In this document: in pieces, positions 1-30,880 of the stretch | Numbering within the stretch: the first letter of the stretch is position 1 | How the letters are laid out: each line of letters opens with the position of its first letter | Assembly (NCBI GenBank): GCA_041494705.1 | Contig: JBGQBI010000004.1 | Coordinates: 120,001-152,000, forward strand | DNA: 32,000 nucleotides | From: Candidatus Methanoperedens sp. | GTDB taxonomy: Archaea > Halobacteriota > Methanosarcinia > Methanosarcinales > Methanoperedenaceae | Direction: 5' to 3' | The notes under the pieces: model-generated | Told to the model about the DNA's origin: nothing | What the model saw: only the letters and a program-made list of their open reading frames with translations | Databases searched by the model: none | Made by a program: the position numbers and the translations under genes

Positions 1-2
1 GG

Positions 3-1786: not shown

Positions 1787-1948
1787 TTGTGTCCTCTATG
1801 CTCAATAAATAGAGTATATCGATATATAATTTTCCGGTAGTTAGTTATGTTTTGGTAACCGCTATTTCTGCATGCATTGCGAAAAATTTATTACCTGCAA
1901 ACTGCCACTAGTGCTACAAGCTTGGGAAAGATCAAATTTCAAGAAAAG
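1787..1948. promoter_or_regulatory. Divergent promoter region (radical SAM gene / methyltransferase) with palindromic TATA-like element
   Basis: AT-rich spacer containing the 12-bp perfect palindrome TATATCGATATA (1815-1826) within AAATAGAGTATATCGATATATAATTTT. Confidence 0.3.
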
Positions 1949-2530: not shown

Positions 2531-2549
2531 AGAAAATATTCAGAATAAT

Positions 2550-3995
2550 TTACCTCATTTTTGATACAATTAATTTTCGTTCAGAATTAAATTGATATCC
2601 CAATCTTTCTCCTAAATTCAAGACATTCTTATTGTTGTATATTGATGTGTACACTTTCTCATATTTAGTTAATTCAGTTCTTGTTGCTATTTCATCAGCG
2701 ACCAAAAAAAAAGTTTTATTAGTATAATTATTTGTTATTCTATCTAAATAAGGATCAGATAAATCATCTATGGTACTGTACATCTGCCTATCTCCATCAA
2801 GCCCTACGCCTGAATACCAGGCTATCTGTGGGCTGTATTTCTCTTGAACTAGCACAAGATATTTGCCTGGATGTTCATCCATATAATTCTTAATAAAAAC
2901 CCCTGCATCCTTTGTGGCGGTATATCCTGCATCTCCGGTGTAACTTAAAAGAATATACGAGACTGGAAGCGCAGAAATAACGACAACCGACATTAAAAGC
3001 ACGGTGGCGAATCGCTTATTCAGCTTCCCTGAAATCCTGACAATCCCTGCACCCGCCATTATCGCCACCGGTGCCATCAGCGGCAGCGAATAATACTCAT
3101 GGCTCGGCGGCGTCCTCACCAGCACAAAAACCCCATATATCAAAAGCCATATGGCGAGTATGTTCTTTACATTCCTCTCTTTTAATATTTGATATGCAGC
3201 AGCCGCAATTACCAGAGGTGATATCCCGGCTGCGGTAAACAGGACGACCCTTGACAGGTCTGAGAACGGTTCGCTCCTGTAAGCAAGCTCGCCAAATACG
3301 ATATTGAAAATAACCGTAAAGTTCCCTGAAACTGCATAATAAGAGAGCCATACCAGGAGCGGTATCATTCCCGCAAAAAAGCACAACATCGCATTAATTA
3401 TCTGTTTTCTCTTAATTCCTTGAAAATAACTCCATACAAGAACAACTGGCAGCACAGCAAGCGCCGGCTGCTTGGTGAATACAGCAAGCCCCAGTGCAAT
3501 TCCAAATGGCAGCATGCTTGTATCGTTCTTATATGCGCGCACATACAGCGCAATCGCAAGCGTCATAAGCGCTGTCATCAAAGGATCTGTCTGCGCCCTG
3601 CCGAACCAGAGTATGTTCCAGGGAATAAATATGAAGATGATGGCTGCTATTTCTGCAGTTCTCTCATCATACAATTCCTTAGCCAGTATATACACACCTG
3701 AAACTGCAATGATCTCTGAGAGGATAGATACAAGGCGTGCGCTTATGTCTGCAATCCCAAAAATCTTAAAGGATGCATATACTGCATACGAAAAAAAAGG
3801 GGGAGCTGATGAGAAGGGGTCCCCTCCGGGATATGCCACCTGCTCCCACAATGAACCTGAAAAATAATTTTTTGCTATTAGAGAGTAATATCCTTCATTC
3901 CAGCCGTGGTAGAACCCGTAGGATGAAAGAGTAGCAATATATGTGCGCACAACAATGTACGTTATTATAATTGCGAGCAACCATCTTTTTTTCAT
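2550..3995 (-). CDS. GT-C fold glycosyltransferase of the ArnT/PMT (GT39/GT83-like, PMT_2) type
   Basis: 481 aa with many hydrophobic helices. The first-loop motif HGWNEGYYSLIA sits at the position of the ArnT/PMT acidic motif, and PWNILWFGRAQTDP follows. There is a soluble C-terminal domain of about 120 aa. ATGA start/stop overlap (3992-3995) with the upstream GT2 gene. Confidence 0.8.
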   Translation of the reverse strand: MKKRWLLAIIITYIVVRTYIATLSSYGFYHGWNEGYYSLIAKNYFSGSLWEQVAYPGGDPFSSAPPFFSYAVYASFKIFGIADISARLVSILSEIIAVSGVYILAKELYDERTAEIAAIIFIFIPWNILWFGRAQTDPLMTALMTLAIALYVRAYKNDTSMLPFGIALGLAVFTKQPALAVLPVVLVWSYFQGIKRKQIINAMLCFFAGMIPLLVWLSYYAVSGNFTVIFNIVFGELAYRSEPFSDLSRVVLFTAAGISPLVIAAAAYQILKERNVKNILAIWLLIYGVFVLVRTPPSHEYYSLPLMAPVAIMAGAGIVRISGKLNKRFATVLLMSVVVISALPVSYILLSYTGDAGYTATKDAGVFIKNYMDEHPGKYLVLVQEKYSPQIAWYSGVGLDGDRQMYSTIDDLSDPYLDRITNNYTNKTFFLVADEIATRTELTKYEKVYTSIYNNKNVLNLGERLGYQFNSERKLIVSKMR

Positions 3996-5734
3996 GTCGC
4001 ATCATCTGGTTTACGTGAGCTCTTTCTCGCCTCTGCAAAATAACCCCTTGATGCAAATCCCAGATGGATTGTCGAAACCATCCCGAATATAATCGTAACC
4101 GATGATCTTACAAAATGGTCAACCAGGGCCAGGGAAAAACCTGTTGATACGGGTATTCCGAACAGGGCTAAGACCCCTGCCATCGTCCCTTCATATATCC
4201 CGATACCCCCCGGCGTTATGGGTATGGTCTGTGCAAGGAAAGAAGTGATCCCGGCAACTGCCGCCAGCGAGAACGGGATCTTATATCCTATTGCCATGGC
4301 TGCTATGTATATGCCAGATATCTCAAAAATCCAGACCGGAACAGAAATAGCAATAGATAGTATAAGCGCACTCGGATTAGAGTATATCCTGTAAAGCCCT
4401 TCCTTCATGGAATTCATAAAACCTGAAATAGCCGGGAACCTCTTACCAAGCTTTCTGGAAATGAACGCGTCGTACCTGTAAGCAAAAAAAAGCATCACTA
4501 CGAGCAGGAAAGCGATCGCAAGTGCGGCGATAGCGACTATTGACATCGTTCTGCCTCTTGAAACGAACATTGCGCCAGCGCCCAGCATGAGTGCCAGCGT
4601 AAACATATCCATTGCTCTTTCAATTACTATTGTGGACAGGCTTATGCCCATGGGGGTCTTCTCTGTGGTCTTGAGGGCCGCGCCCCTTGCGATATCTCCC
4701 GCCCTTGCAGGAAGAAGATAGTTCAAAAGAAAGCCGAACATCAGGCTTTTAAAGAGAATATCCCTTGGCACAACATAACCCGACGTCCGAAGAAGCACGC
4801 TCCATCTCCATGTGCGCATGAAGAATGCCATTGTGATTGCCGCAAATCCTACAAAAATATAAACCAAGGAGACATTTTTAATCGTTTCATATACCTGGGA
4901 GTAGCCGGAATATTTGAAAATCCCAAGCAAAACAAGGATTCCGATTACCAGCGCCCCTAAAAGTTTCCATTTTGAACCAGAAACCACCGAGCTGAACAGG
5001 TCTCTGAGGCTTATAATATTCCCGATGATGAACAGTTTCATGAGGCGCTTACCGTATTTAGTGCCATTCTCTGAAAGCTTGAGCTTTGCTACCCCCCGCT
5101 TCCTCCCGTACCAGGTAACCGGGACCTCGGCGCTTCTGAAACCCATGATATGCGCTTTAAGAGGTATCTCCACTGTGAGGTCAAAACCATTAGCTTCCAG
5201 TTTGTCTATTCCTATACTATCCAGCACCTCTTTTCTGTATGCCTTGAAAGCATTGGTAATATCTTTATGCTTAATCCCGAAAAGCAACCTGACGCTGTTG
5301 TTAAAAGTCCGGTTCGCGATCATTTTTACAGGTGGATATCCATCCGTTCCTCCACCTTCTACGAACCTTGAGCCATATGCGATATCATAGCCCTCCTCGA
5401 TTTTCCGGACAAGCTTTACTATGTCCTTCGGGTCATCCGAGAGGTCCCCCATTACAGGTATTATGATATCCCCGGTAGCATTCCTGAATCCTTCTTTTAT
5501 TGCATTGCCAAACCCGGGGGTGGAGTGGCTGTGAACAGGTTTAATTCTTGGGTTCAGACTTGCGAGCTTTTCTATTATTTCAGGCGTCCTGTCTGTGCTG
5601 TTGTCGTTTACTATTACCAGTTCGTAGTCTCGTGTTTCTTCATGCCTATCAAGAACAGGAAGGAGTTCGTCAAGCAGGTTGGGAAGGTTTTCTTCTTCAT
5701 TATGGGCAGGGACTACAATTGATATTTTGGACAT
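3992..5734 (-). CDS. Fusion protein: GT2 polyprenyl/dolichyl-phosphate glycosyltransferase (ArnC/DPM-synthase-like) plus flippase-like LPG-synthase-TM (UPF0104) membrane domain
   Basis: The N-terminal ~230 aa carry GT-A signatures: ISIVVPAHNEEENL, VNDNSTDRT, GDLSDDP. The C-terminal ~330 aa are polytopic and carry the LLPARAGDIARGAALK motif that I associate with the flippase-like/LPG_synthase_TM family. Confidence 0.8.
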   Translation of the reverse strand: MSKISIVVPAHNEEENLPNLLDELLPVLDRHEETRDYELVIVNDNSTDRTPEIIEKLASLNPRIKPVHSHSTPGFGNAIKEGFRNATGDIIIPVMGDLSDDPKDIVKLVRKIEEGYDIAYGSRFVEGGGTDGYPPVKMIANRTFNNSVRLLFGIKHKDITNAFKAYRKEVLDSIGIDKLEANGFDLTVEIPLKAHIMGFRSAEVPVTWYGRKRGVAKLKLSENGTKYGKRLMKLFIIGNIISLRDLFSSVVSGSKWKLLGALVIGILVLLGIFKYSGYSQVYETIKNVSLVYIFVGFAAITMAFFMRTWRWSVLLRTSGYVVPRDILFKSLMFGFLLNYLLPARAGDIARGAALKTTEKTPMGISLSTIVIERAMDMFTLALMLGAGAMFVSRGRTMSIVAIAALAIAFLLVVMLFFAYRYDAFISRKLGKRFPAISGFMNSMKEGLYRIYSNPSALILSIAISVPVWIFEISGIYIAAMAIGYKIPFSLAAVAGITSFLAQTIPITPGGIGIYEGTMAGVLALFGIPVSTGFSLALVDHFVRSSVTIIFGMVSTIHLGFASRGYFAEARKSSRKPDDAT

Positions 5735-5764
5735 TTTGTTTTAATAATACAATGTTTTTGATTC

Positions 5765-6832
5765 TTATTGGATTTGTGAAAAAACGCTGTTCTTATATAT
5801 TTCAACCAGTATGTCCTTGAGGTTATATTTATAGTTCCATCCCGGATAATGGGATTTGAATTTACTCACATCGCTTATCCACCAGATATGGTCGCCGATA
5901 CGGTTCGTTTCTGTATAAGAATAATCCATCTTTTTTCCAGTTATCTCCTCACACATTGCTATCGCTTCCAGCATCGAGCAATTCGAATGCCTGCTTCCCC
6001 CCATATTATATACTTCTCCTATACGAGGTTTCTGGTAAAAGTGCCAGAAAGCGTTCACAAGATCGAAACTATGGATATTGTCCCTGACCTGTTTCCCTTT
6101 ATACCCGTATATCGTATAATGTGTGCCAGTGGCAGCGCATTTCATCAGGTATGCCAGGAATCCATGCAGAATAGTTGGTGAATGCCCCGGTCCTGTCAGG
6201 CATCCGCCCCTGAAGCAGACGGTTTTCATATTGAAATACTTGCCGTACTCCTGGACAAGCACATCCGCAGCCAGTTTTGAAGCGCCGAACAGGCTGTGTT
6301 TTGTTTGGTCAACGCTCATGGACTCATCAATCCCTTTTTCATAATACGGGTGTGATTCATCGATTTCCCACCGTGTTTCAAGTTCAACAAGCGGCAGGCT
6401 GTTCGGGGTATCCCCATAGACCTTATTGGTGGAAGTGAATATGAACACGGCATCAGGACAATACTGCCTTGTCATTTCAAGGAGCGTCAGGGTTCCATTT
6501 GCATTAACTGTGAAATCAGTAAAGGGATCCTTTGCGGCCCAATCATGGGAAGGCTGTGCAGCAGTATGGATAATTAATTTTATATCTTTATTGTATTTCA
6601 TAAAGATGGCTTCCATTGCTGCTTTGTCCCGGATGTCCTCACTGTAATGAACATAATTTTTTATTTCAGACTCAAGTTTTTTCCGGCTCCATTCGGTGGA
6701 TGCCTCTTCACCGAAAAATACTTTTCTCATATCGTTGTCTATTCCAGCGACCTTAAAGCCCTTTTTACTGAAAAACCTGACAGATTCAGCCCCTATCAAA
6801 CCTGCTGAACCTGTTATCAAAGCAATTTCCAT
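5765..6832 (-). CDS. Extended SDR (NAD-dependent epimerase/dehydratase, CDP-paratose-2-epimerase-like) with atypical FxxxK in place of YxxxK
   Basis: [11 protein letters not shown] (GxxGxxG), FTSTNKVYG and [12 protein letters not shown] are present. The catalytic-motif position reads LFGASK (TTC codon at 6289-6287) instead of YGxxK. ATG 6832 is preceded by AGGAG 7 nt upstream, so the tracked TTG 6853 is rejected. Confidence 0.8.
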
Positions 6833-6845
6833 TAAAATTCTCCTC

Positions 6846-7907
6846 TCATGCAAGAATTGGTTTTAGTAATTCTGAGTTCTCTTTTATCCATATAGATATT
6901 TCCCTTATTATCTCATCCACACTAATTTTGGGCTTCCAGCCAGTTTTTTCCGTTATCTTGCTGTTATCCGTCATATAAATTCGGATATCACCCGGTCTGT
7001 CTTCATTGATGCTATCTATTTGTATTTTATTTCCTGTATATCTCTGACAGAGAGCGGTAAGCTCTAGCAATGATATTGTCCGTTCAAGCCCTCCACCAAC
7101 ATTGTATATTTCACCGTTATGTGAATCCATATCATTGATTTCAATTTCTAAAAGACTATAGAGGTCTTTAACATGTAGAATATCCCTTACCTGTTTCCCC
7201 TTCCCGCCGTAGCCGACATAACTTAAAGACTTCTTATAATGATGTTTTGCAATCCACAGTACAATTACCCCCTGATCTACTTTCCCCATCTGCCACGTCC
7301 CTGTGAGAAGCCCGCAACGATTTATGACACCTCTTATCCCATACATTTCTATATATTCCTGGAGGAGCAACTCCGACGCAAGCTTTGTTGCACCATATAA
7401 TGTTCGAGAACTTTTGAGCGGGAAATCTTCTGTAAAACCTTTTGAGGATACACCCGGAATAGCCTGATTATCAGATAGTTCAAAGCGGGTGGGTTTTTCG
7501 ATAAAGTTCAAATTATTAATAGTTTTTACAGGATATACTCTGCTGGTGGAGAGGAAAATTATATCAGCCCCGCATTTTCTCGTATATTCGAGACAGTTGA
7601 TAGTACCAAGGAGGTTAGTGTTCAGGAGATATTCAGGTGATGAGTTATATCCAGCCATCACAGATGGTTCTGCTGAGCATTCGATTACGATGTCAGTTTT
7701 TCCGACAGCTTCAAAGTCCTCCTTGTTCCTTATATCGCCATGAATGAATTCAATACCGTTTTCTTTCAATCTTGGAATATTGAGTTCAGAACCTCTCCTT
7801 TTAAGATTATCAAAAGCAACTACCTCGACATCTTTCTTATTTCTTTTGAACTCAATGGCAAGATTTGAGCCAACAAACCCTGCACCACCTGTGATTAATA
7901 TTTTCAT
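6846..7907 (-). CDS. Extended SDR, CDP-paratose/tyvelose-2-epimerase-like NDP-sugar epimerase
   Basis: [12 protein letters not shown], canonical LYGATK (YxxxK), DQGVIVLWI and [11 protein letters not shown] resemble the RfbE/paratose-epimerase family as I recall it. ATGA overlap with the upstream uxs stop (7904-7907). Visibly AT-rich. Confidence 0.75.
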
Positions 7908-8839
7908 TTATTGTCTAAAATAATCTTGAAATACTTTATAGTTTCCTTCAACCCTCGCTCAATCGAAACAAGAGGTTCCCATTTTAATAATTTCCTTGCC
8001 TTCGTAATATCTGGCCTCCGTTGCTTCGGGTCATCCACCGGGAGCTCTTTGAATACGATATTTGAGCTGCTTCCTGTCATCTTCAATATTATCTCTGCGA
8101 ACTCAAGAATCGTATGCTCTTCCGGATTCCCGATATTCACAGGCAGCGAATAATCCGACATCATCAATCGATAAATTCCCTCAACTTCATCACTCACATA
8201 GCAGAAACTTCGGGTCTGGGAGCCATCACCGTATACTGTGAGGTCATCACCGCGCAGGGCCTGCCCTATGAAGTTTGGCACCACGCGTCCATCATTCAGA
8301 CGCATCCTCGGACCATAGGTGTTAAAAATGCGCACTATCCTCGTATCAATTCCATGATACCGGTGATATGCCATTGTGATTGCTTCAGCATATCGCTTCG
8401 CCTCATCATAAACACCCCGCGGCCCTATCGGGTTCACATTACCCCAGTATTCCTCGCTCTGCGGATTCACCAGCGGGTCGCCATAAACCTCTGAAGTCGA
8501 TGCAAGCAGGAAACGCGCTCCTTTTTCCTTGGCAAGACCGAGCATGTTATGCGTGCCAAGAGCCCCGACTTTAAGGGTCTGTATAGGCAACTCAAGGTAA
8601 TCTATCGGGCTTGCAGGACTGGCAAGATGGAATATGAAATCTATTTTTTCCTCTAAATAAAGAGGCTTGGTAACATCGTGCCTGATATACGAGAACTTCT
8701 CATTTTTTATGTGGCTGATATTCTCTGCACTTCCGGTAATCAGGTTATCTACACATATCACTTCATATTCTTTGGACAGCAGCAAATCACACAGATGCGA
8801 ACCGAGAAATCCTGCGCCGCCTGTCACTAATACTTTCAT
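7904..8839 (-). CDS. uxs: UDP-glucuronate decarboxylase (UDP-xylose synthase)
   Basis: 311 aa with [29 protein letters not shown] (YxxxK), [10 protein letters not shown] and [13 protein letters not shown]. The length and motif order are typical of UXS. Confidence 0.88.
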
Positions 8840-8857
8840 AAAGCGACACCTCGCTTT
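8840..8857 (-). promoter_or_regulatory. Hairpin abutting the uxs start codon with the SD-like GGUG in its loop
   Basis: The mRNA sense reads AAAGCGA-GGUG-UCGCUUU-AUG: a perfect 7-bp stem and 4-nt loop, ending at the base before ATG 8839. Confidence 0.4.
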
Positions 8858-8867
8858 ATGCGGTGTT

Positions 8868-8888
8868 CAGGTATGCTTCGCATACCTG
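8868..8888 (-). promoter_or_regulatory. Perfect 9-bp hairpin/palindrome CAGGTATGC-nnn-GCATACCTG
   Basis: Read directly: caggtatgc ttc gcatacctg, in the spacer between the nucleotidyltransferase and uxs. Confidence 0.4.
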
Positions 8889-8915
8889 TCGTTTGAAAAA
8901 ACTTTCTTAAATATT

Positions 8916-8938
8916 TACGTATGGAAACGCCATACGTA
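8916..8938 (-). terminator. Perfect 9-bp hairpin TACGTATGG-n5-CCATACGTA, followed on the mRNA strand by a T-run; candidate terminator or attenuator
   Basis: Read directly. In minus-strand sense the hairpin is followed by AAATATTTAAGAAAGTTTTTTC, which also contains a TATA-like AAATATTTAA. Confidence 0.35.
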
Positions 8939-8968
8939 CTGAATTTCATAAAGTTTTTCATTTTCACC

Positions 8969-9985
8969 TCAGAACTCTATAGATGATGAATCCCCTATAT
9001 TAAGGGAATTATGTTTCCCGTGTACACTGGCATCATCTCCAACGATTGACCTCTGTAGATTGACTTTCGAGATATGCGAGCGTGAGCCTATCACGCTGTC
9101 CGAGATGATGCTGCTCTCAATATAAGAATCGCTCGCAATGGATGCGTGAGGTCCAACAACCGAATTAATTATCGTTACGTTATCACCTATGGCAACCGGC
9201 TGGATTATCACCGAATCTTTTATCTGATGCACATGGTCAATATCCTCCTTCTCATCCAGCAGTACCCGATTTGTCTCAAGCAGGGACTCCGGATGCCCGC
9301 AGTCATACCAGCTTGAAACCGGGAAAGTTTTAAGACGGTGTCCTCTGTTCACCATCTCCTGCAGAGCATCAGTAAGCTGGTATTCCCCGCGCGTCCGCAT
9401 ATTTTTCTTAATCATATCATCCAGTATCGACAAAAGAACAGAGGTTTCCTTTATGAAATAAACGCCTGCTATACCCAGGTTGGATTTCGGATGTGCGGGT
9501 TTTTCTTCCAGTCTTTTAATATATTTTCCCTCAAGCTCTACAATACCGTATTTCCTCGGGTCATCTACCTCCCGCACTCCAATCGATGCTGCGCACTCGC
9601 CGTTGGTCAGATAATGTTTATAAAATTCTGAATAGCCTGCCTTGAAAATCATATCCCCGAGTGCAATCATTATATTAGATTCGCCGATTTCATCCCTGGC
9701 GACATAAATCGAATGACCCAGACCGAGCTGTTCATCCTGGTCAACATATCTGATATTGAAAATGCCCGAATAATTCTTATCCACATACGATATAATCTGC
9801 TCTTTCTTGTAGCCCACTACCATTATTATCTCTTCAGGCTCGACATCTATCATCCTGTCCAGTATATGCCCGATTATGGGCTTGCCTGCGATATACACCA
9901 TTGGCTTGGGTTTTGTGAATGTATGCGGAAAAAGGCGTTTTCCTGCCCCTGCTGCTGGAATGATTACCTTGATTTTATTTTTCAC
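8969..9985 (-). CDS. Sugar-1-phosphate nucleotidyltransferase with C-terminal left-handed beta-helix (hexapeptide) domain
   Basis: KVIIPAAGAGKRLFPHTFTKPKPMV is the nucleotidyltransferase P-loop-like signature. C-terminal hexapeptide repeats are present (IGDNVTIINSVVGPHASIASDSYIESSIISDSVIGSRS). GTG 9985 sits behind AGGAG and is preferred. The tracked TTG 10012, which overlaps the ugd stop, remains possible. Confidence 0.8.
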   Translation of the reverse strand: MKNKIKVIIPAAGAGKRLFPHTFTKPKPMVYIAGKPIIGHILDRMIDVEPEEIIMVVGYKKEQIISYVDKNYSGIFNIRYVDQDEQLGLGHSIYVARDEIGESNIMIALGDMIFKAGYSEFYKHYLTNGECAASIGVREVDDPRKYGIVELEGKYIKRLEEKPAHPKSNLGIAGVYFIKETSVLLSILDDMIKKNMRTRGEYQLTDALQEMVNRGHRLKTFPVSSWYDCGHPESLLETNRVLLDEKEDIDHVHQIKDSVIIQPVAIGDNVTIINSVVGPHASIASDSYIESSIISDSVIGSRSHISKVNLQRSIVGDDASVHGKHNSLNIGDSSSIEF

Positions 9986-10002
9986 GGTCTTTATTCTCCT
10001 GA

Positions 10003-11289
10003 TTACCAGCAAAGACCCACATATTCAATATCTTTCCCCGGCTTAACCAGGATGTGCCGTCCGTCTATTACAAGCCTCTTTTCCATAACATCAAATTCCT
10101 TATTAAGTGATTTAAATTCATCCCATTCGGTCATTATAAGGCAGGCATCAGCGTCGCGTAATGCATCCGCTGCCGAGCTGTAATATCCAATGCCGCTGAA
10201 TAGCTTTTTCATGTTCTCGTTTGCCATCGGGTCGTAAGCAGATACCCTGGCTCCTTCATCCAGCAATTCTTTAATTACCGGTATCGACCTTGATTCCCTG
10301 ATGTCATCGGTGTCATTCTTAAACGCAAGCCCAAGGACTGCGATATTTTTCCCTTCCAGGCTCCCAAGCTTATTTTTTAGCAATAGCACCATCCTTGCCG
10401 GTTGTCCCTCGTTAATCGCAATTACTGATTTAAGCAATTGAGGTTCATAGCCAATCTCCTTCGCCTTGCCTATCAGGGCTTTCACATCCTTGGGGAAACA
10501 TGAGCCTCCAAAGCCGGCTCCTGCATTAAGGAAATGCGGTCCAATCCTGAAATCCTTTCCCACGGCAGACATTACTTCGTAGGTGTCTATATCCAATTTC
10601 TTACAGATGTTCCCGACCTCGTTAGCAAACGAAATCTTTGTTGCAAGGAACGAATTGTTAACGTATTTTATCATCTCAGCCGTGCGCGGGTTTGTCCTTG
10701 TTACCTCGCATTTAAGACCGTTATAAAGAGTGGCTACAATATCCCCGGACTTCTTATCCATCGACCCTACCACGATTTTGTCGGGATGCATGAAATCATG
10801 AACCGCCTTGCCTTCGCGCAGGAACTCCGGGTTCATGGCAATACCGAACTCCCCCTGATGTTTTCCTGAATGTTTCTCTATTATGGGCAGCACTATTTTC
10901 TCTGTCGTTTCAGGTACAACAGTGCTTTTTACAACGATAACATGGTAACCTTTCTTTTTTCTTAGCGAGTCACCAATACTTGCGCTTGCTGCCTTGACGA
11001 TAGCGAGGTCAATGTTGCCTTCGGAGTCGGAAGGCGTTCCCACACAAATAAACGATACATCAGAATTCATTATCGCAAACTCGTAATCTGAAGTGGCGCT
11101 GAGTCTCTTGCCGGCATGTTTTTCCAGTAGTTCCTGGAGTCCTTCTTCATAAATCGGCGGAATGCCTGCATTTATCCGGTCAATTTTTGACTTATCTATA
11201 TCAACACATATCACTTCGTGCCCGAGTTCTGCAAAACATGCTGCGCTGACAGTACCAACGTATCCTGTCCCGATTACTGAAATTTTCAT
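10003..11289 (-). CDS. ugd: UDP-glucose 6-dehydrogenase (nucleotide-sugar dehydrogenase)
   Basis: MKISVIGTGYVGTVSAACFAELGHEV NAD-binding fold, catalytic-Cys motif GFGGSCFPKDVKAL, 428 aa. Confidence 0.9.
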   Translation of the reverse strand: MKISVIGTGYVGTVSAACFAELGHEVICVDIDKSKIDRINAGIPPIYEEGLQELLEKHAGKRLSATSDYEFAIMNSDVSFICVGTPSDSEGNIDLAIVKAASASIGDSLRKKKGYHVIVVKSTVVPETTEKIVLPIIEKHSGKHQGEFGIAMNPEFLREGKAVHDFMHPDKIVVGSMDKKSGDIVATLYNGLKCEVTRTNPRTAEMIKYVNNSFLATKISFANEVGNICKKLDIDTYEVMSAVGKDFRIGPHFLNAGAGFGGSCFPKDVKALIGKAKEIGYEPQLLKSVIAINEGQPARMVLLLKNKLGSLEGKNIAVLGLAFKNDTDDIRESRSIPVIKELLDEGARVSAYDPMANENMKKLFSGIGYYSSAADALRDADACLIMTEWDEFKSLNKEFDVMEKRLVIDGRHILVKPGKDIEYVGLCW

Positions 11290-11417
11290 GAGTTTTCCTG
11301 TTTTGTATCTTTATTTTAACAATTGCCTATAAGTTTTTGGTTTTGCTCGTAATTTTTTACTGATAATGGTGGCTTTTCGTTCATGGCTTTTTTTATATCC
11401 GCAATAGAATGTTGTAA

Positions 11418-23997: not shown

Positions 23998-24945
23998 ATG
24001 AACTCCAACCTGCATCGCGCAAGAACCATGATAGATGCGCTGGAAACCGACCCCGATACTAAAGCCTCCATGCTCAGGGGTTTCGAGCGCAGGCTTGGGC
24101 TTTTTGGCAGTGATATTCTTTTTTTCAATGAGCCTTTTACGCCGGTTTCCCTGACGGGCACACGCTGCGCACTTTCCTGCAAACATTGCAACTCGCATTA
24201 CCTGCGCCACATGCTTGACGGCTCTGAGGGAAAATTGGAGGCTGAAGCCGAAAAATTAGCCAGTAAGGGCGCGCAAGGGATATTGCTAAGCGGGGGAAGC
24301 GCTAAGGATGGAAGTGTTCCTACATATGAGCAATCGGGCGTTATCCAAAAAATCAAAGGCGATAAGAAACTCAAAATCAGCGCGCATACAGGCATTGTGA
24401 ACGTCTCGCAAGCACAAATACTTTCGGAATATCTTGATATGGCGCTCGTTGATGTTCTTGGCGATGATGAAACAATCCATGATATCCTCGGCATCGAGGT
24501 GTGTGTGAAGGATTATGAGGAGTCGCTGCGGCATCTCGCCTCTCTCGGAATTCCGCTTGCCCCGCATATCATTGTAGGGCTGCATAACGGCAGATTAAAA
24601 GGCGAATTCAAAGCTCTTGAAATTGTCAAAAAATTCAATCCCGTGACTGTGGTGATTGTTGTATTTATTCCCACAAAAGGAACCGCTATGGTGAGCGTCT
24701 CCCCACCAAAAATTGAGGATGTGGTCAAAGTGATTACAACCGCGCGGGAGATGTTTGACGTACCGCTTTCATTAAGCTGCGTGCGCCCGGGAGGACGTTA
24801 TCGCTCGGAACTTGATAAATACGCAATCCTGGGCGGGATTGACCGGATAGCTGTGCCTTCAAGAAGTGCCCTTGTGACGGCCGGGGAACTCGGATTGAAT
24901 ATCATTGAAATCCCGAAAATGTGCTGTTCTTATAATGTGATATGA
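23998..24945 (+). CDS. Radical SAM enzyme, subfamily not recognised
   Basis: 315 aa with CALSCKHC (CxxxCxxC) at about aa 57-64 and a GILLSGG SAM-binding-like strand. Extra cysteines are present (EVCVKD, LSCVRPGG, C-terminal KMCCSY). ATGATGA overlap with the next gene. Confidence 0.75.
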   Translation: MNSNLHRARTMIDALETDPDTKASMLRGFERRLGLFGSDILFFNEPFTPVSLTGTRCALSCKHCNSHYLRHMLDGSEGKLEAEAEKLASKGAQGILLSGGSAKDGSVPTYEQSGVIQKIKGDKKLKISAHTGIVNVSQAQILSEYLDMALVDVLGDDETIHDILGIEVCVKDYEESLRHLASLGIPLAPHIIVGLHNGRLKGEFKALEIVKKFNPVTVVIVVFIPTKGTAMVSVSPPKIEDVVKVITTAREMFDVPLSLSCVRPGGRYRSELDKYAILGGIDRIAVPSRSALVTAGELGLNIIEIPKMCCSYNVI

Positions 24946-25766
24946 TGAAAAAGATAGCAAGCCATGACGACATCGATATTTTTGCACCTGACAATTCAAG
25001 GTTCTCCTTCCTGAAAAGCCCTTATGCAGCCCATAAAACCAAAAGCGCCGTGGACATATATTATGGGAGTTTTGGCAGCGAAGCGCTTTCGCCGGTTGAC
25101 GGCGAAATAATCGATGTCAGGAGTTTCGATACACCAACACCTTTTAAGGATATTGATTCCAGGGAACATCTAATCGCCATACGTCAGGGTAAATACGTCA
25201 TCAAAATAATCCATATAAAACCTGAAGTTTCAATCGGCGAAACCATATCGAAAGGCGACCTGCTCGGTACATTTATTAAAAACGGCTATTTCATTTTCTG
25301 GAACGACCCGGTGATGCATGTTGAAGTCAGGAAACCCTGGGATTACCTTCGCGCATCGAATAACCTGAACCTTTTGCCCGATATTGAATGGACGGCGCTC
25401 CCGAAAGGCAAAACCCTTGAAGTTGATTGCCAGGTCGAAGAAGTTAATAAGAGATACTCTCTCCTCAGCGCGCCTAACATTTCCTGCGGAGATGTGAGGG
25501 GATTTGCAATAGATGGCGGCTTTCTTGACGGTTTTATCAGTTCAAACGGGGACGGCGGCTTTTTTGGTACAGTTAAAAAGCAGGGATTTTTCCATCCAGA
25601 AGCATCATCACTTGAAATTTCAAAAGGCGATTCCGAAATAAAATGCTCGGGCATTGCCTTTTGCCTGTCTTTAAAAGAACCGAGAATCAAAGTAATCCCA
25701 GGAAAATACGGCGATAAACCCATATCTTTGGGCGATAAAATCCATGTAAAGCTTGCTTTTTATTGA
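24942..25766 (+). CDS. LytM/M23-like beta-barrel protein with incomplete zinc-ligand set plus unknown C-terminal beta domain
   Basis: The order KSAVDIYY ... SPVDGEIIDV ... YVIKIIHIKPEVSIGETISKGDLLGT ... NDPVMHVEVR parallels M23 HxxxD ... G-x-V ... H ... V-x-G-x-x-IG ... PHLHFEV. Lys replaces the first His, and Val replaces the first His of HxH. Translationally coupled to the radical SAM gene. Confidence 0.5.
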   Translation: MMKKIASHDDIDIFAPDNSRFSFLKSPYAAHKTKSAVDIYYGSFGSEALSPVDGEIIDVRSFDTPTPFKDIDSREHLIAIRQGKYVIKIIHIKPEVSIGETISKGDLLGTFIKNGYFIFWNDPVMHVEVRKPWDYLRASNNLNLLPDIEWTALPKGKTLEVDCQVEEVNKRYSLLSAPNISCGDVRGFAIDGGFLDGFISSNGDGGFFGTVKKQGFFHPEASSLEISKGDSEIKCSGIAFCLSLKEPRIKVIPGKYGDKPISLGDKIHVKLAFY

Positions 25767-26236
25767 CCACCCTTGCGCAGCCTTACCCGCAAAACGTCAG
25801 CGGCGCTGCTTAAATCAGCTTCATAAAGGTCTTTTATCTTTGAGTTGTAAAGATAAGCGTAGACTTTCCTTATATCAGCCTCTATCTTTTCCCTGGAAGC
25901 TGGATTTTCAGGCGACAGGATCGTATAAAAATCATCCTGGTGTGTTATTACGAAATATCTTAAATCCTCTGCTTTTTTCATTTCAGGCAATAGCCGCAGG
26001 GCTCTTATAATCGGGGGGCCTCTGGTTTTGCGCTGCTTCGGGCCGTCATGGAGATACAGGCCGAACAACGAATCCCCTGTTTTTAAAATGGCGGTCAGCG
26101 TCATTGCCCCGGCCCCGCTGCATACCTCCACCTTTTCACCGATAACCGAATAACCCATCCCAGCTAATTGTTTCCCGGCGAATTGCAGGAGGGAGAGTTC
26201 ATATTCCCGCTCAGGAATGCCCCAGTAATCGGTCAT
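25760..26236 (-). CDS. Hypothetical protein (158 aa)
   Basis: Clean ORF with ATG start. Its stop overlaps the convergent upstream gene by 7 nt. No motif recognised. Confidence 0.5.
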   Translation of the reverse strand: MTDYWGIPEREYELSLLQFAGKQLAGMGYSVIGEKVEVCSGAGAMTLTAILKTGDSLFGLYLHDGPKQRKTRGPPIIRALRLLPEMKKAEDLRYFVITHQDDFYTILSPENPASREKIEADIRKVYAYLYNSKIKDLYEADLSSAADVLRVRLRKGGQ

Positions 26237-26347
26237 AGCAGCAAGCAGGTTTGGATGGATATTTATAGGTATCTTCCAAATGGATTAAAAAAGTATTAGA
26301 AAAGTATATGTAACAATCATTATAATTTATATATGGAGGTTTTATCG
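26237..26347. promoter_or_regulatory. Divergent promoter region upstream of the envelope gene cluster
   Basis: AT-rich: AAAAAGTATTAGAAAAGTATATGTAACAATCATTATAATTTATATATGGAGG, with GGAGG as the SD for ATG 26348. Confidence 0.3.
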
Positions 26348-27070
26348 ATGAAAACATTTAAACTCTTATTTGTGAATTTGTTAATTCTTGTGATCCTGGC
26401 AAGCCCAGCGCTATCACAAACAAATGACACAACAGCAAACCAAACAACAACAGCGCCCACGGTTGTAGCCACTACCGTTGCGCCTACGGTGGTAGCAACT
26501 ACTGCTGCCCCCACAGCAACAGCCGCAGCAACGACCGGGAAATTCCGCGTGGGTCCGTCCGTTACGCTAAGACCGGTAACCGAAGTGATAGAAACAAACC
26601 AGGATGGAATTGTGGAATTGTTTATGAATAATCCGTCTTTGAACGATGTTACGCTTAATGTAGACGCACGCATCAGTGTACCCAGCGGCATACACGTTTA
26701 CGGTCAAAGTTTCGGAGAGGCGGCAGGTGCCGGAGTGGTAGCCGGTACGTTCAGTGTTCCACCGGGCACGTCAAGGACTATAATAGTAGTTATAAAAGCA
26801 GATAAATCAGCAAGAATCGGCTCTCATACTCTGCAGTTCACAGGATTGTATTGGCCAGACGATAACAAAGACGCTTTCCAGCCCTTGAGTCTTACATACT
26901 CTGTAACTGTCAAGGAAGCATCAAAGAATCCGGAGAGTCCGGACATTGCAAATCCCAGTGCTGTTCCAACAGGAGCAGAGACGCCCAAAGTACAAATACC
27001 CGGATTCGGCGCTGTACTGGCTATATTTGGTGTATTTGCAATTGCACGCCTGCTTTCAAGGAAAGTATAG
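26348..27070 (+). CDS. Secreted surface protein: signal peptide, Thr-rich stalk, beta-sandwich domain, PGF-CTERM archaeosortase signal
   Basis: ATG 26348 lies 8 nt after GGAGG. The signal peptide is MKTFKLLFVNLLILVILASPALSQ. NDT and NQT sequons are followed by APTVVATTV repeats. The C-terminus PGFGAVLAIFGVFAIARLLSRKV has the PGF motif, a TM helix and a basic tail. Confidence 0.85.
   Translation: MKTFKLLFVNLLILVILASPALSQTNDTTANQTTTAPTVVATTVAPTVVATTAAPTATAAATTGKFRVGPSVTLRPVTEVIETNQDGIVELFMNNPSLNDVTLNVDARISVPSGIHVYGQSFGEAAGAGVVAGTFSVPPGTSRTIIVVIKADKSARIGSHTLQFTGLYWPDDNKDAFQPLSLTYSVTVKEASKNPESPDIANPSAVPTGAETPKVQIPGFGAVLAIFGVFAIARLLSRKV
26453..26536 (+). repeat. 27-bp coding tandem repeat (APTVVATTV x2 plus a degenerate third unit)
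   Basis: gcgcccacggttgtagccactaccgtt (26453-26479) and gcgcctacggtggtagcaactactgct (26480-26506), then gcccccacagcaacagccgcagcaacgacc. Confidence 0.8.
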
Positions 27071-27152
27071 AGATATATAGAGACCAAAAATAAATTCGGG
27101 CTGAACACGTTATTAGCTTGCTTAATATGGTAGAAAGGAGTCGTGAATAGTT

Positions 27153-28754
27153 ATGAGCGCACGTCTGCTTTCAGGAAAAAAAATAATGAAAAAAATAATT
27201 TTATTTTTTTTAATATTCATATTATTGGTTAATAACGCTTCAGCCTATACATTTACCAATATCGGAAGAGATTTTAAGATAGAATACCCGTCAGGCTGGA
27301 CTTATACCGAAGAACCTGACGGTTCTGACCAGACTTTTACCAGCCAGACCGGGCATGCATGGGTAAGAGTTGCTGTTGTGCCTTCCGATGGGATGATTCT
27401 TGATGATATAGTAGGTGAGAGAATAAGGTATCTCAACAGTTTGGGCATTTACCCCTTCAGTGAAAAATACGTAACAATCAACGGCGTGACTGACAAAGTC
27501 AAAGAATTGATGTTTTACGAAAATTATCAACAGAAAGAATATAAAGAAAGACAGATTCTCACGCTCTCCGGGAATAAATATTATATTATTACGGCAGGAA
27601 CGGCAACAAGTGATTATCCGTTTTATTCAGAGGACCTTGACCGGATTATCAATTCATTTAATGTCATACAACCTTCTATAGCCACCACAACCACAGGGGC
27701 AATTTCTACACCACCGCCAGCTACACCAACACCAGAGGAAACAGACGAGATATTGTCCTCAGACGTTGCAAGCATCGCTCTTCACAGGGAGAAAACCAAG
27801 GTGGATGTTGGAGAGGAGGTTCTATTAAAACTGTCAATAGTCAATTATATTTCAAATCCGTCGCCGATGGAAGTTCAGCTAATTCTGGCACCTCCTTCTG
27901 GAATGTCAATTACTTCAACGGAATTTACCCAGAGCACTACCGGGCAATCTACTTCAAATTACACGCTTAACCCCGGTCAAAACAGAGATATTGAAATAAG
28001 TTTAAAAGCCAATGAAATAGGCAATTTTAATGTGGAAGGAAGGGTGGTATATTATTTCGGGGAAAATAAAACATCTGCTGTGATAAAAACATTTAAAAAG
28101 CCTATAACGGTAAAATCTGCGGGAGTGATACCCGTAGGGACGACTACCAAACCGCCAGAACCATCCGATGGCTCATCTATAATTGTTGGTATTATAGCCA
28201 TCATTGCGATCATTTTTACTGTTTATGTAATTTTTAATAAGATAGCTAAAGCATTTAAAAATAAATTAACAAAAGGTAAAGCCCCAACAGAAGCCGAAGT
28301 TCATGCGGCAGAGGCCGAAATTCCGCAGCCTTCGGGTATTGGGGAAGAGCCGGCAAGAATTGAGCCAAAGATAAAAAAAGAATCGGCGTTTGAAGCTGAA
28401 AAAAGAAAACAGCATAGTATTTTGCCGCCGGAAGATCTTGATATCGACACAAGGAATTACCTGGGTTCAGGGGTCAATACCGCCATCTCAACGCTTGGTG
28501 CTGAGATAGCAAACGCTGAAAATGATGCGTTGGAGATGCAGGGTGCAATAAAGAAAGACGAGGATGTCCTTGGCAAGCTCGGAACCAGGCTTGTAAATAA
28601 AGAGATTTCAGACCAGACTTATAATGATTTGAAAAATAAGTATATGAGAAAGATTTCCGAATTGAAAAGCAAATCCGCGGCTCTTGAAAGCAATGCAGCA
28701 AAACTGAAAAAAATCCGTTCTTTCATCCATGAAAAAGGAAAATACTATACGTAG
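27153..28754 (+). CDS. Type I membrane protein: signal peptide, PsbP/DcrB-like domain, Thr/Pro linker, beta-sandwich domain, TM helix, cytoplasmic coiled-coil tail with SHOCT-like motif
   Basis: Signal peptide h-region KKIILFFLIFILLVNNASA. FKIEYPSGWTYTEEPDG...NKYYIITAGTA...IINSFNV resembles the PsbP/DcrB fold pattern. The linker is TTTTGAISTPPPATPTPEE. The beta domain has NPSPMEVQLILAPPSGMSI...PGQNRDIEISLKA...ITVKSA. The TM helix is IIVGIIAIIAIIFTVYVIF. The tail contains LGKLGTRLVNKEISDQTYNDLKNKY. An alternative start is ATG 27186. Confidence 0.7.
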   Translation: MSARLLSGKKIMKKIILFFLIFILLVNNASAYTFTNIGRDFKIEYPSGWTYTEEPDGSDQTFTSQTGHAWVRVAVVPSDGMILDDIVGERIRYLNSLGIYPFSEKYVTINGVTDKVKELMFYENYQQKEYKERQILTLSGNKYYIITAGTATSDYPFYSEDLDRIINSFNVIQPSIATTTTGAISTPPPATPTPEETDEILSSDVASIALHREKTKVDVGEEVLLKLSIVNYISNPSPMEVQLILAPPSGMSITSTEFTQSTTGQSTSNYTLNPGQNRDIEISLKANEIGNFNVEGRVVYYFGENKTSAVIKTFKKPITVKSAGVIPVGTTTKPPEPSDGSSIIVGIIAIIAIIFTVYVIFNKIAKAFKNKLTKGKAPTEAEVHAAEAEIPQPSGIGEEPARIEPKIKKESAFEAEKRKQHSILPPEDLDIDTRNYLGSGVNTAISTLGAEIANAENDALEMQGAIKKDEDVLGKLGTRLVNKEISDQTYNDLKNKYMRKISELKSKSAALESNAAKLKKIRSFIHEKGKYYT

Positions 28755-28869
28755 GTTAGAACCGGATGATTAAAATGATGAAACCCGGTTGTTCACAATT
28801 TCAAGCTCTGTTAATAGAAGGTGGGAATCCAGCCAATAATGCACATACACCACAATTCAGGTTGGTTAT

Positions 28870-30180
28870 ATGAACAATAAACTAAATGTTATCTTAATTG
28901 TTTTTTTTATTTTCCTCGTTAACACGGCGCAAGCCCAGGCTATCGAGCATAATTATGTATCTCTTACAGTAACACCGGGAGAGGAAATCAGCAGGACGAC
29001 CAGTTTTACAGGTGCATACAAGCCCTTATTTGCCGCGGTTGATGCTTCCGGCAGTGCCTCATTGTGGGTCATACCAAGACACATAGATTTCGGTCCAATC
29101 AATCCCGGAGATAAAATTGTAAAGGATTATACAATAAGTGTTCCCTCGAATCAAAGACCCGGATACTATGAGTTGATATGGGAATTTAGCTGCAGATATA
29201 CGGATGGAACCACCTGTACAGTCACAAGCGATACGGTGCTTCAAATTACAGTGCAGGCTGCACCTACGCCAACAACCGCAAATAAATATACATCTCTTAC
29301 CTTAACACCGGGAGAAGAGCAAAGTGAATATCTGGAATTCAGCGCACCTTACGACAGCATGTACGCCTGGTCGGATGCTTCCGGCGAGGCAGCATCATGG
29401 GTAACGCCAACACATGTAGATTTCGGTATAATCGATAAGGGGACATCCAATAAGCGGTACTATACAATAAAAGTCCCGGATAATCAATATCCTGGATACT
29501 ATGAGATAATCTGGAAATCGGGCTGCAAATACGTTTCGGGGAAAACTTGCTCGGTTACAGGTGAAACTGTGATTCAAATTACCGTAGAGGCAAAACCCAT
29601 GCCAACATTCACGAGTTACATACCCCGATATACGCCAACGCCGGAAAGTTCAACTGCCCCCATCATTGTCGGATTTATTTTTATATTGGTATTATTTATT
29701 ATCTGGATATCCATTGTATCCTGGGTTGCCGGGGATGCTAATAAACGGGGAACAAGCGGAACCCTGTGGGGAATTTTAACGTTTTTCCTGGGTTTACTTG
29801 GCTTGCTGATATATCTTATAGCCCGGCCAAAAGGAAATCTTGTTTTATGTGGTTATTGCGGGAAAGAAAAATTAGAAAAATTAACCCGATGTCCCCATTG
29901 CAAGAATGCCACAACGCCTGCTCCCGGGCCAGCGCCGGTGAGACCCGGACCGATTTCGTACCCTGCTATTCCCCAAAAACCCGAAGTGGCTGTTGACGAA
30001 TTAAAAGGGCTAAAAGAAAAGCTCAGTAAAATCAATGCACTTCTTGATAAACTGGATGAGATGCTTGCGCAGGGTGAGATAACCGAAACTAAATATAAGG
30101 AGTTGGCTGGAAAATACAGAGCCGAGGCTGATAGTCTTAAGAACCGGATAGCAGAAAAAGAGCTTCTGGATGAGGAGTGA
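28870..30180 (+). CDS. Membrane protein: signal peptide, two tandem Cys-pair beta domains, PLDc_N-like two-helix membrane hairpin, zinc ribbon, Pro-rich linker, C-terminal SHOCT-like helix
   Basis: Signal peptide MNNKLNVILIVFFIFLVNTAQA. Repeats span aa 28-137 and 138-247. WISIVSWVAGDANKRGTSGTLWGILTFFLGLLGLLIYLIARP is like the small PLDc_N membrane domain as I recall it. The ribbon is CGYCGKEKLEKLTRCPHC. The helix is LDKLDEMLAQGEITETKYKELAGKYRAEADSLKN. With two helices the topology of the C-terminal part is ambiguous. Confidence 0.7.
   Translation: MNNKLNVILIVFFIFLVNTAQAQAIEHNYVSLTVTPGEEISRTTSFTGAYKPLFAAVDASGSASLWVIPRHIDFGPINPGDKIVKDYTISVPSNQRPGYYELIWEFSCRYTDGTTCTVTSDTVLQITVQAAPTPTTANKYTSLTLTPGEEQSEYLEFSAPYDSMYAWSDASGEAASWVTPTHVDFGIIDKGTSNKRYYTIKVPDNQYPGYYEIIWKSGCKYVSGKTCSVTGETVIQITVEAKPMPTFTSYIPRYTPTPESSTAPIIVGFIFILVLFIIWISIVSWVAGDANKRGTSGTLWGILTFFLGLLGLLIYLIARPKGNLVLCGYCGKEKLEKLTRCPHCKNATTPAPGPAPVRPGPISYPAIPQKPEVAVDELKGLKEKLSKINALLDKLDEMLAQGEITETKYKELAGKYRAEADSLKNRIAEKELLDEE
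28951..29610 (+). repeat. Internal tandem duplication of a ~110-aa domain (2 x 330 nt)
   Basis: Units 28951-29280 and 29281-29610. My hand alignment shows about half of the residues identical (SLT.TPGEE, DASG, W..P.H.DFG, Y.I.VP.NQ.PGYYE.IW, C.Y..G..C.VT..TV.QITV). Confidence 0.8.
29998..30168 (+). repeat. Copy 1 of the 171-nt SHOCT-like module (C-terminus of the 28870-30180 protein)
   Basis: Aligns without gaps to 30245-30415. I count 139/171 identical nt and 48/57 identical aa. Confidence 0.85.
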
Positions 30181-30238
30181 AGGAAGCAATAGCCGCACAA
30201 AAGAGTAAGTGACAAAACCAAAAACCAGGCGAGACTCC

Positions 30239-30880
30239 ATGAACGAACTAAAAGAACTTAAGGAGAGGTGCAGTAAAATCAACTCGCTCCTTGACAAACT
30301 GGATGAAAGGCTTGCGCAGGGCGAGCTTAGCGAGGCTAAATATAAAGAGTTAGCTGGAAAATACAGAGCAGAGGCGGATAGTCTTAAGAATCAGATAGCT
30401 GAGAAAGAGCTTTTGCAGGATGTCGGACTTAAAACCGAGGAGAGGGAAGAACCAATAGCCGAATATCCGGAAAAAGAGCCTGAAAAGCCGGTTTTTAAAG
30501 AGGGCGCAAAATATTGTTCTAATTGCGGAGCTTTGATAGATGAAAGGGCAGAGATTTGTCCTAAATGCGGTGTAAGAGTTTCAGAGCCTCCCATCAGCAG
30601 AATTTCAATAATACCAGAGAAAAAAAATGTTGCTCTTGCAGTCGTGCTGAGCTTTTTTATTCCGGGATTGGGGCAAATGTATTGTGGTAAAGCGGCAAGA
30701 GGTGTGGGAATTTTAGTGCTTAGCATTCTGATGTTTTTGATTTTCGGATTTGCCGCAAGTTCGGCAGGCGCAGCATCTTCAGCACCAGCCTTTCCCTTTT
30801 TATTGTGGATTCTGGTTTACATATGGAACATTTATGATGCATATAAACTCGCTGGAAAAATAAATCGTGGAGAAGCTTAA
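30239..30880 (+). CDS. Membrane protein: N-terminal SHOCT-like helix, acidic/Pro linker, zinc ribbon, C-terminal PGLGQMYCG-type (TM2-like) membrane domain
   Basis: MNELKELKERCSKINSLLDKLDERLAQGELSEAKYKELAGKYRAEADSLKNQIAEKELL is followed by CSNCGALIDERAEICPKCG and then VVLSFFIPGLGQMYCGKAARGVGILVL...WNIYDAYKLA. The tracked GTG 30209 is an alternative start. Confidence 0.7.
   Translation: MNELKELKERCSKINSLLDKLDERLAQGELSEAKYKELAGKYRAEADSLKNQIAEKELLQDVGLKTEEREEPIAEYPEKEPEKPVFKEGAKYCSNCGALIDERAEICPKCGVRVSEPPISRISIIPEKKNVALAVVLSFFIPGLGQMYCGKAARGVGILVLSILMFLIFGFAASSAGAASSAPAFPFLLWILVYIWNIYDAYKLAGKINRGEA
30245..30415 (+). repeat. Copy 2 of the 171-nt SHOCT-like module (N-terminus of the 30239-30880 protein)
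   Basis: See copy 1. The offset is 247 nt, so the copies are in different reading frames of the window but each is in frame in its own gene. Confidence 0.85.

Follow-up and report, generated by a model that had tools for sequence, protein, structure and literature searches.

The window analysed here, a stretch of 32,000 nucleotides (nt) from the methane-oxidising archaeon Candidatus Methanoperedens (ANME-2d), contains at positions 26348-30880 four co-oriented genes, termed g1 to g4 in the following, that encode envelope proteins made from common parts. We read them, with moderate confidence, as a conserved envelope cluster specific to the Methanoperedenaceae, in whose products a SHOCT-like helical hairpin, promiscuous and close to the membrane, serves as a putative association element. 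The four envelope proteins would then have been assembled from a small kit of shuffled modules, with the hairpin serving as a handle for protein-protein association that ties envelope proteins to each other or to a common partner beneath the membrane. Thereby the ectodomains would be organised and coupled to the cytoplasm, and the homologous beta-sandwiches of g1 and g2 could give a second, extracellular contact.

Common parts of the four proteins

The existence of four consecutive plus-strand genes for secreted or membrane proteins with common parts, proposed earlier from the sequence (the original prediction), is confirmed by the open reading frames (ORFs), which are all present in the ORF list and together fill 26333-30880, as well as by domain matches and homologies. 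The part that links three of the genes is a two-helix module (like all cluster features below on the plus strand), located at the 3' end of g3 (29989-30174) and at the 5' end of g4 (30239-30424). Residues 368-435 of g3 and 4-71 of g4 are 72% identical over 68 amino acids (aa) (BLASTP, E 5e-28; hhalign probability 99.9%), and the similarity extends to the DNA, where a direct repeat of 178 nt covers the module at the end of g3 (copy 1, 29996-30173) and at the beginning of g4 (copy 2, 30243-30420) with 81% identity between the copies. The tail of g2 appears to be a distant relative, as its residues 457-512 align with the g4 module at 32% identity over 56 aa (BLASTP, E 5e-5) and the hhalign comparison with the g3/g4 module reaches a probability of 70% at E 4e-5; furthermore, a g2-type tail was found at 35% identity when the module of an unrelated protein, P0252, was used as query. 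The earlier claim that one and the same helix occurs in g2, g3 and g4 therefore stands for g3 and g4, while for g2 it has to be reduced to a distant relationship. With about 92 aa, the g2 version of the module is longer than those of g3 and g4 (about 62 aa), and the mean net charge across orthologues is acidic for the g3 and g4 modules (-2.8) and basic for the g2 hairpin (+3.9).

In the AlphaFold2 (AF2) models of g2 and g3, the module consists of two long helices with a short turn between them. In g3 the helices span residues 374-400 and 406-435 and the turn reads QGEIT, and in g2 the last two helices (441-481 and 487-532) flank the turn VNKEI, modelled with a pLDDT (predicted local distance difference test) of 85-94. 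On the basis of these models the module is read as an antiparallel helical hairpin whose turn would represent a divergent SHOCT/GvpG-type motif. A search of the PDB with a profile of the module returned only de novo designed TIM barrels and SET protein (E 0.002-0.5) over short repeated stretches, and these matches were judged spurious. The module copies are more alike within a clade than among orthologues: the g4 module of the window is 79% identical to the g3 module of the same cluster and 49% identical to that of the g4 orthologue in locus L004. Recent gene conversion between g3 and g4 was considered and rejected, since the DNA identity (80%) does not exceed the protein identity (79%), so that any homogenisation would have to be old.

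The first gene, g1 (26333/26348-27070), most likely starts at the ATG at 26348, since GGAGG lies 8 nt upstream of it. Its product has the parts predicted for it, namely a signal peptide, a Thr-rich stretch with N-x-T sequons, a beta-sandwich (~26537-26920) and a PGF-CTERM sorting signal (26996-27064). No other part of the cluster is as well conserved as this sandwich, which shows about 80% identity where g2 to g4 reach 46-58%. The sorting signal is matched by Pfam at residues 222-244 (PF18204, 22.7 bits against a cut-off of 18.8), and the C-terminal motif PGFGAVLAIFGVFAIARLLSRKV is directly readable. With its PGF motif, hydrophobic helix and basic tail, the end of g1 resembles those of the PGF-CTERM surface proteins processed by archaeosortase A; it differs from them in missing the cut-off of TIGR04126 (21.5 against 24.5) and in having its Thr-rich stretch in the N-terminal part rather than adjoining the anchor. 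The g1 product would thus be a surface protein, for which a lipid anchor after processing by archaeosortase is presumed.

For g2 (27153-28754), the ATG at 27186 is the most likely start, because the alignments of its orthologues begin there, at M12 of the listed ORF (MKKIILFF). The gene encodes a type I membrane protein displaying a PsbP-like domain and a g1-type beta-sandwich. A signal peptide is followed by the PsbP-like domain (27240-27665), a Thr/Pro linker, the sandwich (27747-28115, residues 199-321), a transmembrane (TM) helix (28173-28265, residues 341-371), a disordered stretch and a helical cytoplasmic tail (28386-28748, residues 412-532; pLDDT 85-94), whose long helical hairpin occupies 28473-28748. 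In total, 162 aa follow the TM helix, and this tail is strongly conserved among orthologues. The assignment of the PsbP-like domain in the original prediction proved correct: residues 30-171 pass the Pfam thresholds of both PsbP_2 (PF18933, 31.4 bits against 27) and PsbP (PF01789, 29.2 against 23.5), and the AF2 model (mean pLDDT 71), which shows the PsbP fold at residues 31-170, superposes in Foldseek on the PsbP crystal structures 2xb3, 1v2b and 4rth with TM-scores of 0.6-0.73 and a root-mean-square deviation of 3-4 Å. In contrast to PsbP proteins, g2 has no photosystem context, and its PsbP-like domain forms one polypeptide with the sandwich, the TM helix and the helical tail described above. 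Beyond PsbP, Foldseek retrieved only arrestin and complement MG sandwiches with the g2 model. The proposed relationship between the sandwiches of g1 and g2 is likewise borne out; with 25% identity over 100 aa in BLASTP (E 8e-5) and an hhalign probability of 96% (E 2e-9), sequence comparison identifies the two as homologous.

The g3 product (28870-30180) comprises a signal peptide, two tandem Ig-like sandwiches (28945-29253 and 29284-29586, residues 26-128 and 139-239), a PLDc_N-like two-helix membrane hairpin (29659-29823), CxxC pairs resembling a zinc ribbon (CxxC-x10-CxxC, 29848-29901), a Pro-rich disordered linker and the hairpin module. Each of the sandwiches, which are seen in the AF2 model (mean pLDDT 75), carries a conserved Cys pair, and a repeat search at the DNA level traces the tandem to an internal duplication of 333 nt. 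The NEW3 sandwich family is matched by 18 of 46 g3 orthologues. Foldseek with the g3 model retrieved only generic tandem Ig or fibronectin type III folds (ciliary central-apparatus proteins, RbmA, transglutaminase) and thus gave no functional lead. The membrane hairpin, modelled as hydrophobic helices at 264-293 and 297-318, had been called PLDc_N-like; the window copy has no match to PLDc_N (PF13396) in Pfam at E<=0.1, but at that threshold 34/46 orthologues match (best E 3.8e-5), and NCBI names one of them a PLD nuclease N-terminal domain protein. Zinc ribbons had been ascribed to both g3 and g4. In g3, the window copy lacks a Pfam zinc-ribbon match, but no fewer than 90% of orthologues keep C327, C330, C341 and C344, and two short strands are predicted there. 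In g4, the ribbon (30509-30577) is above threshold (Zn_ribbon_3, PF13248/PF13240, 31.9 bits against 27).

The last gene, g4 (30239-30880), most likely starts at the ATG at 30239 rather than at the listed GTG at 30209, since its orthologues, which are 213 aa long, begin with MNELKELK. It encodes a small polytopic zinc-ribbon membrane protein in which the N-terminal hairpin module is followed by an acidic linker, the zinc ribbon and a three-helix, DUF6677/TM2-like membrane domain (30620-30853). TM2, one of the families that the original prediction named for checking, falls short in Pfam for this membrane domain (PF05154, 18.6 bits against 27.9), as does DUF6677 (PF20382, 20.4 against 24.3), and homologues of g4 are labelled TM2 and DUF6677 in their source annotation. 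Ribbon and membrane domain together make up a small protein common across bacteria and archaea: residues ~90-223 of g4 align at 40-46% identity with YozV-like proteins of 117-200 aa from Methanobrevibacter, Methanotrichaceae and Syntrophorhabdaceae that combine a zinc ribbon with a DUF6677/TM2-like domain. Unlike g4, these proteins have no N-terminal hairpin module.

Relatives and carriers of the hairpin module

The helix had been taken for a SHOCT domain, and SHOCT for an oligomerisation motif. The first assignment is not upheld by Pfam, in which SHOCT (PF09851) scores 16.1 bits in g3 and 17.6 bits in g4 against a gathering threshold of 27 and has no match in g2. As to the second, the acronym stands for SHOrt C-Terminal domain and not for an oligomerisation motif (Eberhardt et al., 2013, PMC3581485); the same authors proposed oligomerisation, tested it and found their fusion protein to be monomeric (PMC3581485). 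A relationship to SHOCT is nevertheless apparent among the orthologues and distant relatives of the module. SHOCT is matched by 35/46 g3 orthologues, with a best E of just 1e-3, and the Gly typical of the SHOCT turn is invariant in g3 and g4, while the g2 turn reads VNKEI. A profile built from the three modules of the window and searched against 1.84 billion representative proteins retrieved no more than 120 proteins at E<=1e-3, 35 of them at E<=1e-10. The strong matches span the whole module of about 62 aa, whereas the weaker ones cover its central 35-40 aa and often lie at the extreme C-terminus; of 83 weaker ones scanned, 32 also match SHOCT (best E 1.1e-10) and 33 match GvpG at E<=0.01. 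In the three cases checked, the SHOCT or GvpG match coincides each time with the residues matched by the profile, and in P0309 the SHOCT match falls inside the profile match. Some of the weaker matches also carry Band-7, a classical SHOCT partner.

The module resembles SHOCT in the two-helix motif, whose turn holds a conserved Gly in g3 and g4, the local pattern L..L..L..G-E-[IL]-[ST]....Y..L, the promiscuity and usually terminal position in the protein, and the retrieval of SHOCT-matching proteins by the window profile. Moreover, double zinc ribbon, TM2 and FGE-sulfatase are among the published SHOCT partners (PMC3581485), and all three partner types are met here too. It differs in its sub-threshold scores in the window (16-18 bits against 27), in helices two to three times longer (SHOCT has ~30 aa and no indels, compared with ~62 aa in g3 and g4 and ~92 aa in g2), in the lack of the Gly in g2, in the N-terminal position of the g4 copy and in its confinement to Methanoperedens-type archaea and a few metagenomic relatives. 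Likewise, 33/83 distant relatives match GvpG (PF05120), but the window proteins themselves have no match at E<=1 and no gas-vesicle genes lie nearby. We therefore describe the module as an extended, divergent SHOCT/GvpG-like helical hairpin and not as a member of the SHOCT family.

SHOCT-like domains have been predicted to anchor disparate domains at the inner leaflet of the membrane (Ravi et al., 2024, PMC11237479), which raises the alternative that the module does not bind to itself but places each protein at the inner membrane face or at an unrelated common partner, the four proteins being independent of each other. In addition to this prediction, the position of the module fits such a role, as it is never more than about 130 aa away from a TM segment and almost all architectures place it in the cytoplasm, and the recurrence of TY-Chap3 and Band-7 partners among the relatives parallels the systems described there (PMC11237479). 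In both cases the SHOCT-like element is intracellular, membrane-proximal and fused to disparate domains, and is accompanied by zinc ribbons, TM modules and CesT/TY-chaperone-like domains. However, no gene for PspA, PspC, Toastrack or LiaF is present in the window or the related loci examined, and the partners here are extracytoplasmic Ig-like and PsbP domains and the modules are acidic, in contrast to those sub-membrane systems, which are associated with the phage shock protein (PSP). The acidity of the g3 and g4 modules in all orthologues would disfavour electrostatic binding to a lipid surface assumed to be anionic, an anchor would be superfluous in proteins already embedded in the membrane, and the conserved order of the four genes would be left unexplained. 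We consider this alternative unlikely.

The helix is not specific to the partners of the original prediction, since it occurs, at 60-80% identity, on about 20 other membrane-protein architectures. The module is a promiscuous "handle" on many Methanoperedens membrane proteins with extracytoplasmic domains. Its carriers include a cupredoxin protein (P0111, which also has a g1-type sandwich), an FGE-sulfatase-domain protein (P0112), type IV pilin-like and S-layer-domain proteins (P0237, P0251), TY-Chap3 + TM2-like proteins (P0174-P0177), PsbP + single-TM proteins (P0103-P0107), an HNH-like protein (P0238, according to our own reading of its sequence), a TPR protein (P0256) and several multi-TM proteins. 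About 23 architectures have the module at the N-terminus and lack a signal peptide, and in others a signal peptide, an ectodomain and one TM helix precede it; both arrangements place the module in the cytoplasm, no further than about 130 aa from a TM segment. The g1-type sandwich behaves as a second promiscuous module, found besides on P0111 also on a Kelch protein (L010 11150-12733). One protein of an NCBI contig, P0099 (682 aa), joins a g2-like PsbP domain to the Cys-pair domain, PLDc_N hairpin and ribbon of g3 and to the sandwich and tail of g2, without a TM helix before the tail; it may be a real recombinant or an assembly artefact. Its use as a clue to topology was rejected, since it is inconsistent in either orientation and may be such an artefact.

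The pairing of modules in neighbouring genes recurs outside the cluster. On an unrelated metagenome contig (L014 574-5168), a gene for a secreted protein of 415 aa is followed by that for P0249, a protein of 756 aa with a large ectodomain, two hydrophobic segments and a C-terminal module, and then by the abutting gene for P0252 (322 aa), which combines an N-terminal module with a DUF7978-like multi-TM domain. The modules of P0249 and P0252 are 52% identical (E 4e-16). In every locus of Methanoperedens, as in the L014 pair, a gene that ends in the module precedes one that starts with it. A metagenome scan with a profile of 12 modules yielded six more orthologous clusters and short SHOCT-like cores from soda-lake samples, but no new independent pairs of module genes. 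In the soda-lake metagenomes (L021-L023, L033, L035, L036) the core lies at the N-terminus of a protein of about 300 aa, whose gene adjoins a divergently oriented ORF of 151 aa that is also a weak match to the core. On viral contigs, no module was found.

Conservation of the cluster and the possible role of the hairpin

A genome scan with g2 found nine loci (L001-L009), all of Methanoperedens type, and together with six metagenome loci (L015-L020) they make 15 Methanoperedens-type loci in which the order g1-g2-g3-g4 is kept, as far as each contig reaches, with protein identities down to 46-58%. Homologues of the four genes therefore do remain neighbours elsewhere, as anticipated. The flanks in L003, L004, L008 and L009 show no relationship to the window's flanks or to one another, indicating that the four genes travel as a unit. 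Among 5.8 billion proteins, full-length homologues of g2 and g3 occur only in Methanoperedens-type records, and we found no paper in the literature that joins Methanoperedens with PsbP, or PLDc_N with SHOCT. In L008 (3181-5867), neither the g2 nor the g3 orthologue is complete, each being split or shortened (429 aa plus remainder, and 366 aa, respectively), which likely reflects frameshifts or assembly errors in the metagenome-assembled genome.

Gene content varies around this core. A fifth gene follows g4 in L001 (8916-9650), L002 (13638-14369) and L010 (9338-10048) and is absent from the window; it encodes a soluble protein of 240 aa that joins the N-terminal module to a domain of about 170 aa without a Pfam match. 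L010 (4150-13672) has flanks like those of the window and an expanded array, which includes a protein with three Cys-pair sandwiches, a module + TY-Chap3 protein and a protein combining a Kelch propeller, a g1-type sandwich and PGF-CTERM. At the g3 position of L010 stands a PsbP + sandwich + single-TM + module protein that lacks both PLDc_N and the zinc ribbon.

Such plasticity would be expected if the four genes formed no functional unit and their adjacency and common parts were by-products of local duplication of surface genes and exchange of modules. The 178-nt direct repeat across the g3/g4 boundary and the 333-nt duplication inside g3 agree with this explanation, as do the fifth module gene, the array of L010 with its Kelch/PGF-CTERM protein and TY-Chap3 genes, and the chimaera of g2 and g3 parts in P0099. 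However, the order of the four genes persists down to 46-58% identity and in four unrelated genomic contexts, and conservation is strong in both the tail of g2 and the sandwich of g1. An origin of the arrangement purely as a by-product is very unlikely in our estimation.

At the other extreme stands the model of the original prediction in its strict form, in which g2, g3 and g4 build one dedicated hetero-oligomer, their helices zipping into a coiled-coil/zinc-ribbon hub beneath the membrane to which g1 docks from outside. This model would account for the synteny kept despite differing flanks, for the recurrence in L014, with unrelated domains, of a gene with a C-terminal module followed by one with an N-terminal module, for the clade-specific states common to the g3 and g4 modules, for the opposite net charges of g2 (basic) and g3/g4 (acidic) and for the membrane-proximal zinc ribbon in both g3 and g4. 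Against it speak the roughly 20 other proteins bearing the module, including the solitary P0111, and the monomeric state of SHOCT in the sole test. The single-TM protein replacing g3 in L010 has no ribbon (nor PLDc_N), so that a fixed ribbon hub is not conserved. A further objection concerns topology. The predicted topology places the modules of g2 and g4 in the cytoplasm, but g3 and P0249 each have two hydrophobic helices after the signal peptide, and by parity the ribbon and the module would then lie outside the cell, across the membrane from their supposed partners. With 2.2 Lys and Arg per 10 aa in the g3 loop and 2.95 per 15 aa beyond the second helix, positive charges stand at both ends of that helix, which leaves the charge rule indecisive. 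Since the protein at the g3 position of L010 has a single TM helix, its module must be cytoplasmic, and by analogy this gives a hint, though only a hint, that the g3 copy may be cytoplasmic as well. Of the complex as first proposed, the conserved co-oriented unit, the homologies and the L014 pairing hold up, while the SHOCT premise was wrong, the helix is not specific to the partners and parity would place the g3 copy on the opposite side; we regard the dedicated hetero-oligomer as rather unlikely.

Several of these observations also weigh against our preferred reading of a conserved cluster with the hairpin as an association element. The g2 tail is only loosely tied to the module of g3 and g4 (hhalign 70%), the one experiment that tested a SHOCT domain showed no multimerisation (PMC3581485), and the module is not specific to the cluster, so that sharing it cannot by itself mark g2, g3 and g4 as partners. 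Furthermore, counting of segments would put the g3 module on the side of the membrane opposite to those of g2 and g4, and the locus is plastic, with extra genes in L001, L002 and L010, a feature that also fits a duplication hot spot.

A bolder extension, which we think improbable, would make the extended hairpin a lineage-specific homotypic "zipper" that assembles many envelope proteins into one lattice beneath the membrane, with the g1-type sandwich as the matching extracellular docking module. Besides g2 to g4, such a lattice would include the cupredoxin, S-layer-domain, pilin-like and sulfatase-maturase-like proteins. If this were true, it would constitute an undescribed way to organise an archaeal cell surface and the first function assigned to a SHOCT-type domain. 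To our knowledge, these widespread domains have had no demonstrated function since their description in 2013, and the envelope of Methanoperedens is almost unstudied. Methanoperedens are nitrate- and metal-dependent methane oxidisers, and their envelope is the site of extracellular electron transfer. A cytoplasmic handle common to cupredoxin, S-layer-like and Ig-like proteins would, if real, amount to an organising principle of the Methanoperedens surface, and the paired neighbouring genes, with a C-terminal copy followed by an N-terminal one, offer a concrete, testable case of heterotypic association. Otherwise, the cluster is a well-delimited, family-specific marker of the Methanoperedenaceae.

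Transcription signals and neighbouring genes

Upstream of g1, at 26326..26333 on the plus strand, lies an exact match to the archaeal TATA-box consensus, TTTATATA, which is the sole TATA match with at most one mismatch across the four spacers of the cluster. The internal spacers (27071-27185, 28755-28869 and 30181-30238; 82-115, 115 and 58 nt long, respectively) contain no T5 run and no TATA match. Internal spacers free of signals together with a TATA box before g1 are consistent with a single transcript, without proving it, and the cluster probably forms an operon whose genes would be co-transcribed. Searches of the window gave no Rfam matches, and no NCBIfam model reached its cut-off.

Of seven window proteins looked up, six have exact copies recorded under Candidatus Methanoperedens. 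The cluster is surrounded by genes with housekeeping functions (H+-PPase, CofE, eIF2-gamma, Rpo7, ThrRS), with g4 abutting thrS, and a functional tie to the neighbours was rejected because the flanks are of this kind and vary among genomes. Just upstream of the cluster (24942-26236) are two conserved hypothetical genes restricted to Methanoperedens, one on the plus strand (274 aa) and one on the minus strand (158 aa); their products have no match in Pfam, and the pair accompanies the cluster in window-type genomes only. A sugar-nucleotide and glycosyltransferase island lies 15 kb upstream of the cluster. This run of glycosylation and sugar-nucleotide genes (window positions 1-11300) includes genes for a B12-radical SAM protein, a methyltransferase, a PMT_2 glycosyltransferase, a GT2 fused to LPG_synthase_TM, three NAD epimerase/dehydratases, a nucleotidyl transferase and a UDP-glucose dehydrogenase, and the first 3 kb of the window have a GC content of 32-36%, compared with about 45% elsewhere.

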